Program-made: the position numbers and the translations under genes
The notes under the pieces: model-generated
The model's database searches: none
What the model was told of the DNA's origin: nothing
The model's input: only the letters and a program-made list of their open reading frames with translations
Shown: in pieces, positions 27,548-36,393 of the stretch
Layout: each line of letters opens with the position of its first letter
Numbering within the stretch: the first letter of the stretch is position 1
Origin: Leptolyngbyaceae cyanobacterium
Lineage (GTDB): Bacteria; Cyanobacteriota; Cyanobacteriia; Phormidesmidales; Phormidesmidaceae
Assembly (NCBI GenBank): GCA_050331235.1
Contig: JBHJHA010000063.1
Coordinates: forward strand, 1 to 53,660
Reading direction: 5' to 3'
DNA: 53,660 bases

Positions 27548-28429
27548 ATGGAATTCACATCACAAAAGCAAGTATTGGTAGGACTCAAAGCCAACCACTT
27601 TCGTCATCCCTTAGATTTGGATGCCACCAATTCTCTGCGCCAGTTGCCTGGTCTCGACATCATCATCCGTACCGCCTTAGGCCCCATCGCAGAACAGGTG
27701 ATGTATCTCGACAACATTTCCTCGAGTGTGCTGGTTGGTCCCCGTCAGCTCCCCGATCTCCATGAGCTATTGATTGAGGCCGCTAAAATTCTCGACCTAG
27801 ACCCTCCCCAGCTCTACGTGCGTCAACATCCGGTCCCAAATGCTTATACATTTGCGATGCGGGGTAAGCAGCCATTTATTGTGATCCATACAGCGCTGAT
27901 TGACTTGCTGACACCGGCGGAGATTCAGGCGGTCATTGGGCACGAACTGGGCCATTTGAAGTGTGACCACAGTGTGTATCTCACCTTGGCCAATTTACTC
28001 GCTTTAGCGACGAGCCAGCTACCGTTCGGTGATGTCCTGGTTCCCGCGTTTCAATCACAAATCATGGAGTGGGTGCGATGTGCCGAGTTTACCTGCGATC
28101 GCGCCGCGCTGCTGGTGGTGCAAGATGCCAAAACCATTGCGTCCCTTTTGATGAAACTCTCAGGCGGTTCGCCCCAGCTCTCTAATCAGCTCAACGTGGA
28201 AGCGTTTCTTGAACAAGCTCGCGCCTATGATACCGCAGCGGCTTCCGAGGTTGGTGAAGCTGTCAAGCAAATCCGGACGCAAGAACTCACCCACCCGCTC
28301 CCAGTTTTGCGTGCGCGGGAGATCGATCGCTGGTCTAATACGCCCCAGTATCAATCTTTGCTAAATAGCGATGTTTCGGCGTATAATAATGACGAAATGT
28401 CATCTAAGGGCGGATGGCGGAATTGGTAG
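27548..28429 (+). CDS. M48 family zinc metallopeptidase
   Basis: PNAYTF, HELGH, AEFTCDRAA, THPLPVLRA; last codons overlap the tRNA. Confidence 0.9.
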   Translation: MEFTSQKQVLVGLKANHFRHPLDLDATNSLRQLPGLDIIIRTALGPIAEQVMYLDNISSSVLVGPRQLPDLHELLIEAAKILDLDPPQLYVRQHPVPNAYTFAMRGKQPFIVIHTALIDLLTPAEIQAVIGHELGHLKCDHSVYLTLANLLALATSQLPFGDVLVPAFQSQIMEWVRCAEFTCDRAALLVVQDAKTIASLLMKLSGGSPQLSNQLNVEAFLEQARAYDTAAASEVGEAVKQIRTQELTHPLPVLRAREIDRWSNTPQYQSLLNSDVSAYNNDEMSSKGGWRNW

Positions 28430-28489
28430 ACGCACCTCACTCAAAATGTGGCGGCTTCGGTCGTGAGAGTTCGAGTCTCTCTCCGCCCA
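28408..28489 (+). tRNA. trnL: tRNA-Leu(CAA)
   Basis: Acceptor GGGCGGA/TCCGCCC+A, D-loop GGAATTGGTAGAC, anticodon loop CT-CAA-AA (28442-28444), long variable arm, T-arm GAGAG-TTCGAGT-CTCTC; CCA not encoded. Confidence 0.95.
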
Positions 28490-28510: not shown

Positions 28511-28717
28511 ATGGCAACTCTGAAGCGATGGGAGTCGCCTCGTCGTAAGGGGCGCAATGATAAGGGTCGCGGCGGTTCTGCCCGGCAGCGACAGCTCAAA
28601 AAGCGTGGACAACAGCTCCGCAAACGGTTGAAAGCCGATACGCCTAATCACAATTCTCTAAAAGAGAGGTCAGCCGACCTCTCTTTTTTGCTTTTGGTCT
28701 CAGAAAAAACTGGATGA
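28511..28717 (+). CDS. Small basic protein; candidate alternative ribosome-rescue factor (ArfA/BrfA/ArfT-like)
   Basis: 17 of first 41 residues are K/R; KGRGGS motif; intrinsic terminator inside the CDS; hydrophobic tail LSFLLLV. Function is inferred. Confidence 0.6.
   Translation: MATLKRWESPRRKGRNDKGRGGSARQRQLKKRGQQLRKRLKADTPNHNSLKERSADLSFLLLVSEKTG
28660..28689 (+). terminator. Intrinsic terminator lying within the small ORF
   Basis: AAAA-GAGAGGTC-AGCC-GACCTCTC-TTTTTT; ends about 26 nt before the TGA at 28715. Confidence 0.8.
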
Positions 28718-31852: not shown

Positions 31853-31976
31853 TGCTCAAAATCCCGACTTCTCGAAAAAGCCGGGGTTCTCTTTTAGGGT
31901 GCTACACGGTCGCGAGTTCGGGGGCTTGGCGGTTGAAGAAAAGGCGTTCGTTTTCCACATCGGCGTAGAAGCGATC
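31853..31976 (-). repeat. Diverged duplicate of clpB 3' end plus downstream hairpin
   Basis: 124 bp aligning gap-free to 33597-33720 with about 16 mismatches by hand count; encodes [24 protein letters not shown]. Confidence 0.92.
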
Positions 31977-31991
31977 CCATGTTTCATGCCA

Positions 31992-32375
31992 CTAGGATAG
32001 CGAAAGGCGCTGTCGAATGCTTTGCCTGACGCGATCGTATAAACCGTAGACTTCTTCAGCAACGGCCTGATCCGCTGAGAACCCTGGATACCGCACTGCG
32101 ACGGCGTAGTCCGTCAGCATCCCTAAAGCAAACCGCAGGGTTTCTAGCTCCGGGTCGTGGGGTAGCAGCAAGTCCAACAGTGCGGTTAAATCGTGGATTT
32201 TGGGAACTGGGATGTCGGTTTCTTGCAGTCTGGCTTCGAGATACTTTTCGGCACATTGCTGAGCATGGAAGCAAACGGCATCATAGTTGGGCAACTGCTC
32301 GGCCCGTAGCTCCCGACCCGCAGTCCGAAAATCGCCCTCCGCTTTCTCAATCCACTCCTGGGTCAGTGGCTTCAT
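31992..32375 (-). CDS. HEPN domain protein (MNT-HEPN pair)
   Basis: WIEKAEGD, VCFHAQQCAEKYL, PKIHDL, YAVAVRYPG. Confidence 0.9.
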   Translation of the reverse strand: MKPLTQEWIEKAEGDFRTAGRELRAEQLPNYDAVCFHAQQCAEKYLEARLQETDIPVPKIHDLTALLDLLLPHDPELETLRFALGMLTDYAVAVRYPGFSADQAVAEEVYGLYDRVRQSIRQRLSLS

Positions 32376-32676
32376 AAAGCACTTTGCCTTCATCGACGAT
32401 TTCTTTCATAAAAAAATCTCCCATCTCTAAACGCTGACGCAGCAACTCAGGGGTGCGCACGAGTAAATCTAAGGGAAACTGAGGGCGAACCTGAAACCGG
32501 ATTTCAGCCGCTTGCCGAGGAGAATGGCCCTCAAACGGCATCACCACCAGCAAATCCACGTCCGAATCTGGAGTCGGTTCACCATAGGCGTAGGAACCAA
32601 ACAAGATGATGCGCTCAGGGTGGAACTGCTCAGCAATTTGCTGGCTCAGCGCTTCGATTTGCGACATCTCGACCAT
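32347..32676 (-). CDS. Minimal nucleotidyltransferase (MNT) antitoxin
   Basis: IILFGSYAYG..DSDVDLLVV, EGKVLYE; overlaps the HEPN start. Confidence 0.92.
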   Translation of the reverse strand: MVEMSQIEALSQQIAEQFHPERIILFGSYAYGEPTPDSDVDLLVVMPFEGHSPRQAAEIRFQVRPQFPLDLLVRTPELLRQRLEMGDFFMKEIVDEGKVLYEATDPGVD

Positions 32677-32794
32677 AGCGGCCTCGCAAGGGTTTTCTCT
32701 ATTTTGCCATTGAGCTAAGAATCGACGAGCGATCGCCCTTCTTTATATAAATGAGATGGCAGTGGGGGAGCGATCGCCCCCCGGCAGTGCCCAT

Positions 32795-33143
32795 TCACAG
32801 TGGCAAAAACTGTACTTGATTTTCCAAATTCCGAGTATTCGCCCAAAGTCGCAATCAGCTCGAAATCTCGAATGCAGGTGCCAATGGAGACTCGCGATTG
32901 CCGAGCAAATACGAGCCCCGGAAAATCAACCGCTGCTTGCTAGCATCGTTGCGCTTCTGTAGGCAAATCATCGTCTTGAGTAAACAGGATGCGGCGCAAT
33001 TCCGTCGCTCGATCCAAAACTACTGGATCGGCGATGCCGCTGCGGTGGTCTTCTTGAACGGTCAGGACATTCACTCGTCGTTGGCGTAAGCCGTTGGTAA
33101 TCGCTCCGTGCACATTCTCATCCATGTAGAGCGTGAGGCTCAT
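32795..33143 (-). pseudogene. DUF5615 PIN-like toxin pseudogene
   Basis: YMDENV...LFTQDDDL; in-frame TAG 32940-32942; homology continues (DFPGLVFARQ..SIGTCIRDFELIA); then a 1-nt frameshift before ENQVQFLPL*. Confidence 0.82.
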
Positions 33144-33469
33144 GCCAACAAACCCTGGTTCCTGAGTCGTGCAACAAAGGTCGAGCTCGGCGACTGTTGC
33201 TCTAAATTGGCCACATAGGCGTCTCGCTGCTCAATGTCGGCATCCAGGGCTTCGCGATGATCCCAGTAGTATGCGAGGGCCGCATAAATCTGTCCCATAC
33301 TGAGATATCGGTGATTGATTTGAATTTCTTCTGGCGTCCAACCATAGGCCCGCTGCGCCATCACCAGCTCCACAATTTTGAGCGTTGTGCCTGCAATGAT
33401 GGGCACTTGCTGGGGGGCTAACCCAATGTGAGGATATTCCGTTTGGGTCAGTCGCTGCGCGTTGGTCAT
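33140..33469 (-). CDS. DUF433 domain antitoxin
   Basis: PIIAGT, GWTPEEI...LSMGQIYAALAYYWDH; ATGA overlap with the DUF5615 gene. Confidence 0.9.
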   Translation of the reverse strand: MTNAQRLTQTEYPHIGLAPQQVPIIAGTTLKIVELVMAQRAYGWTPEEIQINHRYLSMGQIYAALAYYWDHREALDADIEQRDAYVANLEQQSPSSTFVARLRNQGLLA

Positions 33470-33601
33470 TCAGGAATCCCGATCGGCCGTTTGGGCTATT
33501 TTAGCAAGCGCTTAACTGTCGTTATGGGCGATCGCTTTCTACATCCTCGCAGTTGCGATCGCGCAAATGAAGGCGATCGCCCCACCACCTCCCAGTTGCT
33601 C

Positions 33602-33634
33602 AGAACCCCGGCTTCTTTGAGAAGCCGGGGTTCT
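33602..33634. terminator. Hairpin after clpB (REP-like repeat/terminator)
   Basis: AGAACCCCGGCTTCT-TTG-AGAAGCCGGGGTTCT perfect 15-bp stem. Confidence 0.65.
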
Positions 33635-33645
33635 CTTTTAGAGGG

Positions 33646-36264
33646 CTACACCGTCGCGAGTTCAGGGGCTTGGCGTTTGAAGACGAGGCGTTCGTTTTCC
33701 ACATCGGCGTAGATCCGATCGCCGTTCTGAAAATCGCCCCTGAGAATCCCCTTAGCGATAGGCGTTTCCAACTCCTTCTGGATGGCGCGCTTGAGGGGGC
33801 GGGCACCGTAGACGGGGTCGTAGCCCACCTGGGCCACCCAATCCAGCGCCTCTTCCGACAGCACGAGGGACATCTTGCGATCGCCCAATCGCTGCTCCAG
33901 CCGTTGGATTTGTAGCTTGACGATGGACTTCAACTGCTCCTGACGCAGGCTGTGGAAGATGATCAGCTCATCCACCCGGTTCAGGAACTCAGGTCGGAAC
34001 TCGGCCCGCATGGCCTCCATGACGCGATCGCGCATCAGGTCGTACTTCTCATCGTCGCCCGCCAGATCCAGGATGAACTGGGAGCCGATGTTGCTGGTCA
34101 TGATCAGCACCGAGTTGCGGAAGTCCACCGTGCGCCCCTGGGAGTCGGTCAAGCGACCATCATCCAGAATTTGCAGCATGATGTTGAACACATCGGGGTG
34201 GGCCTTCTCGATTTCGTCGAACAGGATGACCGCGTAGGGCCGACGGCGAATCGCCTCCGTGAGCTGACCGCCTTCCTCAAAACCGACGTATCCCGGAGGG
34301 GCACCAATCAGCCGCGCCACTGCGTGCTTCTCCATATATTCCGACATGTCGATGCGGACGATCGCCTCTTCCGTATCAAACATATAAGACGCTAGTGCCT
34401 TCGCCAGTTCCGTCTTACCGACGCCCGTGGGGCCGAGAAAGATAAAGCTGGCAATCGGCCGATTCGGATCAGCGAGTCCAGCCCGCGATCGCTGAATCGC
34501 ATCTGCCACCGCCGTGACGGCTTCCTCCTGACCAATCACCCGTTGGTGCAGTTCATCTTCTAGGTGCAGCAGCTTCTCCATTTCGGATGCCACCAACTTG
34601 CTGACCGGAATGCCCGTCCACTTGGAGATAATTTCAGCGATGTCTTCCTCTGTTACCTCTTCCCGCAGCAGCGATTGACCACTGGTCTGGGCATTTTCCA
34701 GCTTTTGTTCCGCTTCCTCAACCTGGCGTTGCAGGTCAGTCAGTTTGCCATATTTCAGCTCAGCGGCGCGATTCAAGTCGTAGTTGCGCTCCGCCTGCTG
34801 AATCTCGATGTTGACGTGATCTAGCTCTTCCCGTAGCTTTTGAATATCATCGATCAGGTCTTTCTCGGACTGCCACTGAGCATTCAGACCAGACTGGGTT
34901 TCCTTCAGATCCGCCAGTTCTTTATCCAAGCGCTCCAGCCGATCTAGGGAACCGGCGTCGGTCTCGTTTTTGAGGGACAACCGTTCCATTTCCAACTGCA
35001 GTATCTTGCGGTCAACTTCGTCCAGTTCTTCCGGCTTGGAGGTGATCTCCATCTTCAGCTTGGCGGCGGACTCATCCACCAGGTCGATCGCCTTATCGGG
35101 CAAGAAGCGATCGCTGATATACCGCGTTGACAGCACCGCCGCTGCCACCAGCGCACTGTCGGAAATCTTCACCCCGTGGTGGACTTCGTAGCGCTCCTTC
35201 AGCCCCCGCAAAATCGAGATCGTGTCTTCAATGCTAGGCTGATCGACAAATACCTGCTGGAAGCGGCGTTCCAGAGCGGCATCCTTTTCGATGTATTTAC
35301 GATACTCATCCAGCGTTGTCGCCCCAATACAGCGCAGTTCGCCCCGCGCCAGCATCGGCTTCAGCAGATTGCCTGCATCCATTGAGCCCTGGGTCGCACC
35401 CGCACCCACAACAGTGTGGATCTCGTCGATGAAGAGCACCATCTGTCCATCAGAATCTTGCACTTCCTTTAGGACAGCTTTTAGCCGTTCCTCAAATTCA
35501 CCCCGGTATTTGGCCCCGGCAATCAGGGCCCCCATATCGAGGGCGATGATTTTGCGATCGCGCAACGACTCCGGCACATCCTTACTGACGATGCGCTGGG
35601 CCAGTCCTTCGGCAATCGCGGTCTTCCCGACACCGGGTTCACCAATCAGCACCGGGTTGTTCTTCGTCCGCCGCGACAAAATTTGAATCGTCCGGCGAAT
35701 TTCATCGTCCCGACCAATCACCGGGTCGAGCTTGCCCAACCGCGCCAGTTCCGTCAAGTCGCGGCCATATTTTTCCAGCGCTTCGTATTTGCCTTCCGGG
35801 TTTTGATCCGTCACTTTCTGATTCCCCCGTACGTCTTTGATGATCCCTCTAAGGGTGTTTTCGTCTAAGCCAAACTCTTTGAATAGGTTGCGCCCAAAGC
35901 GATCGTCCTTCGCGTAGGCCAACAGCAGGTGCTCGATGGAAATGTACTCGTCGCCAAAGTCTTTACGGTAGCCATCAGCGCGATCGAGCAGTTTGTCCAG
36001 ACTGTTACCCAGATACACCGAGCCGCCCGCATTGCTGATCTTGGGCTGCTTGGCAACAAAATCAGTTGTTCGGTCGCGCAAGTTCTGCACGTTCACTTCC
36101 GCTTTATTAAAAACGGAAATCGCCAGTCCGTCTTGCTCTAACAGCGCCTGCATCAGATGCTCGCTTTCGATCTGCTGATGCTTAGCTTCTTTGGCGATCT
36201 CTGGCGTCCGCACGATGGCCTGCCACGCCTTTTCGGTAAATTGATTGGGGTTGGTCGGTTGCAT
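33646..36264 (-). CDS. clpB: ATP-dependent chaperone ClpB
   Basis: [14 protein letters not shown] start; GEPGVGKT and GPTGVGKT Walker A motifs; middle coiled coil [15 protein letters not shown]. Confidence 0.98.
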
Positions 36265-36393
36265 AATCTCTCCGGCTAGCAAGATATCCACTCACAACGC
36301 ATCAGAAGCCAGGAGCCAGCCAACAGCCCAGTGATAGCTGATGTCTGACATCTGATGTCTGTATTAAATATGAAGGATTTCCCAAAAAATCAG

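Follow-up and report, generated by a model that had tools for sequence, protein, structure and literature searches.

The window, meaning the whole 53,660-nucleotide stretch of Leptolyngbyaceae DNA that was analysed, holds a 68-codon ORF whose ATG lies 21 nt beyond the end of a tRNA-Leu(CAA) gene (Table 1). The first 41 residues of its product contain 17 K/R and 2 D/E. A hairpin followed by T6, quoted as 28664-28689 in an earlier note on this DNA, lies inside the reading frame, and a closer inspection revealed that the stem extends to 12 pairs (28660-28687). For the 91-nt region the folding energy is -28.8 kcal/mol (z -3.7), a value that 0/200 shuffles equalled. The U-tract ends ahead of the TGA, which starts at 28715, and therefore an RNA ending at the U-tract would comprise 59 codons and no stop. 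Thus the spacing of ORF and tRNA, the very basic N-terminus and the strong terminator inside the coding sequence, all read from the letters by the earlier note, were confirmed.

Table 1. Coordinates of the features at the tRNA-Leu(CAA) locus of the window.
Feature	Position	Strand	Remarks
Sigma-70-like promoter upstream of tRNA	28358..28387	+	Consensus match 10/12
tRNA-Leu(CAA)	28408..28489	+	ARAGORN; ORF would be read from the tRNA 3' trailer
68-codon ORF, unnamed family	28511..28717	+	Translation of 68 aa; Pfam/NCBIfam without match at E<=1
Conserved basic core, residues 1-41	28511..28633	+	WESPR segment, RNxKG[KR]GG turn, predicted basic helix
KGRNDKGRGGS motif	28547..28579	+	Weak alignment with KKGKGS region of ArfA
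Variable polar linker	28634..28659	+	Kept free of in-frame stops
Predicted intrinsic terminator inside reading frame	28660..28689	+	12-pair stem, 4-nt loop, U-tract; position conserved in homologues
Unconserved tail and TGA	28690..28717	+	Read only on terminator read-through

Three promoter-like sites were seen against 2.1 expected, so the site upstream of the tRNA is not significant alone. This putative promoter likely drives a joint transcript of tRNA and ORF in the window. An M48/HtpX-like peptidase ORF (27548-28429, +) lies upstream, its last codons and stop overlapping the tRNA-Leu gene (28408-28429).

Distribution and conserved core of the family

The ORF had no match in PHROGs, as in the two databases given in Table 1. 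A genome scan returned 111 relatives, of which 80 were kept, nearly all titled cyanobacteria, and protein searches gave 999/999 and 1542/2237 candidates, whose listed names were all 'hypothetical' or 'uncharacterized'. Carriers with strain names include Tolypothrix tenuis PCC 7101, Nostoc carneum NIES-2107 and Cylindrospermum stagnale PCC 7417. A core profile made from alignment A1 (35 sequences, 14 invariant columns) matched 92/301 genomes of the phylum, each with a single copy except for one decayed second copy (L168). There was 1 match among the last ten families (166 genomes, mostly from other classes) and there were 0 in the 14 small genomes of family f18; by count from tallies, about 92/136 genomes of the window's class carry the gene. 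A profile search of 1.84 billion proteins gave 458 matches, 408 of them at E<=1e-10, and the best 150 of the 458 all share the same core. Matches in the ESM Atlas were unnamed clusters only, and the annotated phage and plasmid collections gave no family match. Weak matches to five Pfam families, each in 1-6/35 members, were rejected as unrelated to the family, and three PDB matches of the core profile at E 0.3-0.7 were put down to chance.

The ORF is constrained at the protein level: over 86 homologous loci the minor-allele fraction was 0.17 at the first, 0.08 at the second and 0.41 at the third codon position. The KG[KR]GG motif is present in 86/90 loci, so the motif named in the earlier note is conserved, and past residue ~41 the family proteins diverge in length and sequence. 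Residues 1-41 are likely the working protein. AlphaFold2 modelled the core as a coil followed by a helix at 18-42 (mean pLDDT 75), with no beta-strand. One copy (L075 107-262) looks frameshifted in an A-run.

Neighbour analysis revealed no conserved partner besides tRNA-Leu and the M48 peptidase, and no neighbour hints at function. A search by title, abstract or peptide motif, covering few subscription papers, found no cyanobacterial factor of this type. The family is not mentioned in passages of PMC6514570, PMC11633108, PMC4235212, PMC2584231 and PMC12873609. Cyanobacterial data tables on small proteins, Ribo-seq or Term-seq might contain the gene as a locus tag.

Position of the terminator relative to the stop codon

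Homologous loci were scored in three sets: set A, selected with the full-length query (79/80 loci scored; L046 dropped for its short flank); set B, selected with the core-only profile and including the window's own locus (90/93 matches fetched, 88 scored; L089 and L155 dropped); and set C, the best 80 of 295 metagenomic matches, all scored. The loose rule took the first hairpin and U-tract with dG<=-7 within 220 nt 3' of the core, and the strict rule required dG<=-10 and at least 6 U. A terminator was present in 78/79, 84/88 and 80/80 loci of sets A, B and C, a total of 242/247 cellular loci. An in-frame stop lying wholly before the sixth U was found in 0/242 (0/78, 0/84 and 0/80 by set, with kin overlapping between sets); in the borderline locus L144 the stop overlaps the U-tract. 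As for the other two frames, 47/162 and 130/162 loci of sets A and B and 14/80 and 74/80 of set C contain a stop, and linker-only shuffles predicted stops in 59/141 and 22/49 distinct segments (about 40%). Related loci recur among the sets and do not count as independent; still, the linker to the U-tract varies freely from 25 to about 180 nt and the U-tract occurs in all three phases, so simple inheritance does not account for the absent stop. By the strict rule an in-gene terminator was found in 72/88 homologues versus 17/700 long ORFs sampled from the 1871 of this genome. Because 222/700 ordinary genes also pass the loose rule, it is the strict rule alone that separates homologues from background.

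A tRNA-Leu(CAA) lies within 60 nt upstream in 21/86 core-selected (set B) and 13/76 full-length-selected (set A) loci, and the M48 peptidase lies upstream in 15/86 and 29/76, respectively. Among the set-B loci without a close tRNA, 63/67 keep the in-gene terminator, and the hairpin therefore belongs to the ORF; many of the tRNA-less loci show a TATAAT-like box just upstream, as read by eye. In the window a promoter-like site speaks for the co-transcription with a tRNA put forward in the earlier note; across the family no more than about one locus in four has the tRNA close by. Since the terminator-before-stop counts exceed the shuffle and ordinary-gene background and persist without the tRNA, the non-stop layout is almost certainly selected, as in arfA and brfA. 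The terminator is conserved inside the coding sequence while the tail is free in phase, length and sequence, the pattern for which that note had proposed to look.

The tail was examined in its own right. Mean hydropathy is +1.19 for the five codons ending at the U-tract versus 0.07 in the tail beyond (151 distinct loci), and the hydrophobic stretch, encoded by the 3' arm of the hairpin and the U-tract, is found in all three phases across homologues. Because the phases vary and the tail beyond is neutral, the patch is a by-product of U-rich DNA, and of the hydrophobic tail that had been claimed only the stretch at the U-tract stands, not a conserved tail. The distance from U-tract to stop is 5-283 nt among homologues. 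The frame stays open past the U-tract for a median of 16 codons versus 10-11 in the other frames, which is close to neutral (p 0.04, with kin not independent).

No terminator was scored by the loose rule in five loci (L137, L075, L168, L153 and L161). L137 has a weak hairpin that is still ahead of the stop. Two others are intact with an early stop: L153, of 43 aa, directly before rimM (L153 161-836, genome G165), and L161, of 51 aa. Loss of trans-translation was considered for these stop-bearing copies and rejected, as both genomes (G165 and G233) have SmpB and tmRNA. The same-genus genome G185 keeps the terminator form, unlike L153, which is a natural constitutive variant. At a Microcystis locus (L045), assembled contigs of 4/24 listed RNA runs cover the whole stretch; such contigs are uninformative on transcript ends.

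Viral copies and known rescue factors

Three scans of viral contigs gave three full-length copies and one fragment. The copy on a 119-kb contig (L201, 42 aa) lies beside thymidylate synthase, dCMP deaminase, HNH and tRNA genes, that on a 208-kb contig (L202, 43 aa) has 7 neighbours without a PHROG match, and that on a 21-kb contig (L208, 41 aa) lies beside a Bro-N gene. All three (3/3) stop 0-6 nt past the core, and in L201 and L208 a terminator follows the stop. As viral copies end there with a normal stop, the bare core of 41-43 aa is probably the working unit, and the normal stop would free them from tmRNA control. The fragment (L203 3001-3042) holds the first 14 residues only, then unrelated sequence.

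ArfA matches 16 records of the phage collection. Of 9 fetched, 7 stop 11-18 residues past the motif, one without a clear motif is equally short and one has 34; a U-tract precedes the stop in only one of the 9. In marine gammaproteobacteria 3/4 arfA loci (L301, L302 and L304) also stop before the predicted terminator, so the parallel between the viral copies and phage ArfA is a loose one; perhaps not every arfA is under non-stop control, or a cleavage event provides it. Pelagiphage arfA is reported to be highly expressed (PMC12753301). In GenBank the ArfA-like frame of phage Arash is labelled 'ribosomal protein L2', and those of RsoM2USA, pf16, Cr30 and CRP-212 are unannotated (L292, L294, L296, L298 and L299, including Arash).

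In its working the layout appears to be a switch of the ArfA/BrfA type, yet no sequence match placed the family in either. BrfA (YqkK), an RF2-dependent factor of Bacillus subtilis, is likewise small and basic, with no GGQ and with an intrinsic terminator within the coding sequence; only when SmpB is absent does the protein build up, and the release factor that it recruits is RF2 (PMC6881298). About 9 C-terminal codons of brfA are dispensable (PMC6881298), their counterpart here being the unconserved tail. BrfA consists of N-terminal helices, a beta-strand and a basic C-terminal tail and has a KH motif, whereas the core here is a coil followed by one long basic helix, without KH; moreover, BrfA rescue has been tested experimentally, whereas the present family is known from sequence and model. 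The core profile matched no BrfA chain of the PDB at E<=10, the presence of the BrfA entry 6SZS (PMC8012679) in the searched copy being unconfirmed.

The gene for ArfA is controlled like brfA, and the two proteins share the KH motif and a short strand (PMC8012679). Escherichia coli ArfA resembles the family in its non-stop mRNA (predicted here), poorly conserved tail and phage copies and, marginally, in a KGKG-like motif (PMC8012679), but its motif is preceded by 20-30 residues and followed by a loop, whereas here about 13 precede the motif and a helix of ~20 residues follows. A PDB search with the core profile at E<=10 matched no ArfA chain, a positive control having shown that the searched copy contains such chains, and Pfam ArfA had no match among 35 members. 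The KGxGG region aligns with KKGKGS of ArfA (E. coli ArfA and a 14-sequence profile) at an hhalign probability of 1.3-1.6% and E 0.03-0.04, a marginal likeness, as 6/200 column shuffles reached the score. KH was found in 0/35 cores and GGQ in 0/35 (the core being about 41 aa), and the lone AlphaFold2 model has no beta-strand, although a strand joining the RF2 sheet could form only on binding. The earlier note's description of the protein as a counterpart of ArfA and BrfA therefore has strong support for the non-stop design, not for features of those families, which were not detected.

The motif of ArfA, KGKGS, is channel-binding, and the KKGGS stretch of Francisella ArfT, whose gene lacks an internal terminator, has been compared with it (10.1101/465609). 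ArfT, here compared by description, is about 40 aa and stop-terminated like the viral copies; its motif lies near the C-terminus, and cellular copies of the present family differ in having the internal terminator. The C-terminal channel-binding helices of ArfB and SmpB are basic and of similar length to the one modelled here (PMC8012679), but the GGQ domain of ArfB and the tmRNA-binding domain of SmpB are absent from the family, and profiles of the ArfB and SmpB tails, the latter of 3 sequences, gave no alignment with the core.

This genome (95.5% complete) has tmRNA, SmpB, RF1 and RF2, and no ArfB match was found in it. Among the sampled genomes of the class, ArfB and this gene occur together in 42, this gene alone in 50, ArfB alone in 21 and neither in about 23. 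Complementarity with ArfB was rejected overall on these counts, ArfB being present in 42/92 carriers versus about 21/44 non-carriers. The 14 sampled small-genome relatives of f18, all without this gene, have ArfB in 14/14. Genome G000 has no ArfB match, and G247 of the same genus has one.

Candidate functions

The genes brfA and arfA have this same layout and both encode rescue factors (PMC6881298, PMC8012679), which is why a rescue role is proposed. The predicted terminator inside the reading frame would end the mRNA without a stop codon, the tmRNA system would control the level of the product, and on failure of the main rescue system the basic core would free stalled ribosomes as a back-up. 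On this analysis the gene probably encodes a conserved basic protein of ~41 residues, produced off an mRNA without a stop codon and likely acting as a tmRNA-controlled back-up ribosome-rescue factor. Control of the product by trans-translation is very likely, and it is reasonably probable that the core would act through a release factor. Several observations count against this explanation: the family has no detectable homology to known rescue factors, no KH and no strand; two cellular copies (L153 and L161) stop early despite tmRNA and SmpB; complementarity with ArfB is absent; intrinsic termination is a minority in Synechococcus elongatus; and the neighbours are uninformative.

The non-stop data would also fit a protein that is gated by tmRNA, binds ribosomes and aids stalled ones without recruiting RF1 or RF2, be it by subunit splitting, peptidyl-tRNA drop-off, aid to ArfB or RQC, or protection of idle ribosomes. 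A fold unlike that of ArfA and BrfA, with its long basic helix after the motif, and the position of one stop-bearing cellular copy directly before rimM speak for it. Nevertheless, the characterised small proteins of this layout described in the cited papers, ArfA and BrfA, recruit RF2 (PMC6881298, PMC8012679) and the motif, despite its marginal likeness, suggests the mRNA channel, and we regard such a protein as unlikely, if a serious alternative. Trans-translation might instead set the level of a basic nucleic-acid-binding peptide with a target off the ribosome, such as a regulator of the stress response, given that 17/41 basic residues could bind any RNA or DNA and that the neighbours are unrelated genes. 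The size, charge, glycine-lysine turn and phage capture match known rescue factors, though, and no DNA-binding family was matched, which makes a sensor of this kind improbable.

Two further readings concern the hairpin itself. Were it leaky or masked by the ribosome, most of the mRNA would reach the stop, the full-length protein would be made, and the hairpin would tune its level, mRNA stability or downstream read-through. The slightly longer open frame past the U-tract agrees with this, as does the report that canonical intrinsic terminators explain 22% of transcript ends in S. elongatus (PMC12642595), but the idea leaves unexplained why none of 242 cellular loci has its stop ahead of the hairpin when viral copies do, and why the tail is free in phase, length and sequence; its probability is low. 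In the other reading the hairpin is only the terminator of the tRNA, which the earlier note named among its refuting cases, and the ORF is a chance frame in the trailer where the window's copy sits. This is contradicted by the protein-level conservation of the core and refuted by the tRNA-less loci that keep the terminator, and retains next to no probability.

Beyond a back-up rescue factor, a wider proposal can be made, and we offer it tentatively, with slightly more doubt than belief. The family would be a fourth, independently evolved rescue factor that recruits a release factor, confined to oxygenic cyanobacteria and built unlike ArfA, BrfA and ArfT, with a short N-terminal segment, a glycine-lysine turn and a long basic helix. 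In its ancestral state it would be translated from a tRNA-Leu transcript's trailer, and cyanophages would have captured it in a form that ends in a stop codon and escapes tmRNA, so that the recycling of host ribosomes goes on in infection.

A review predicts more small, sequence-unrelated rescue factors, which must be found by genetics (PMC8012679). For an entire class of photosynthetic bacteria the family offers a ready rescue-factor candidate, with 50/92 sampled carriers having no ArfB match, and a natural stop-bearing form of 41-43 aa exists for direct assay. If the role were confirmed, it would represent a new structural solution to termination without a stop codon, the added stop codon would show how phages rewire a quality-control switch of the host, and looking for 'terminator before stop' would be validated as a way to find such factors in further phyla.

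Lastly, the window contains at 31992-33469 (-) two small gene pairs resembling nucleotidyltransferase/HEPN and DUF433-type pairs, which we take to be putative toxin-antitoxin modules. A ClpB-like gene (33646-36291) lies beside them, and the similar translations of 31856-32062 and 33600-33806 suggest a repeated element flanking the pairs.
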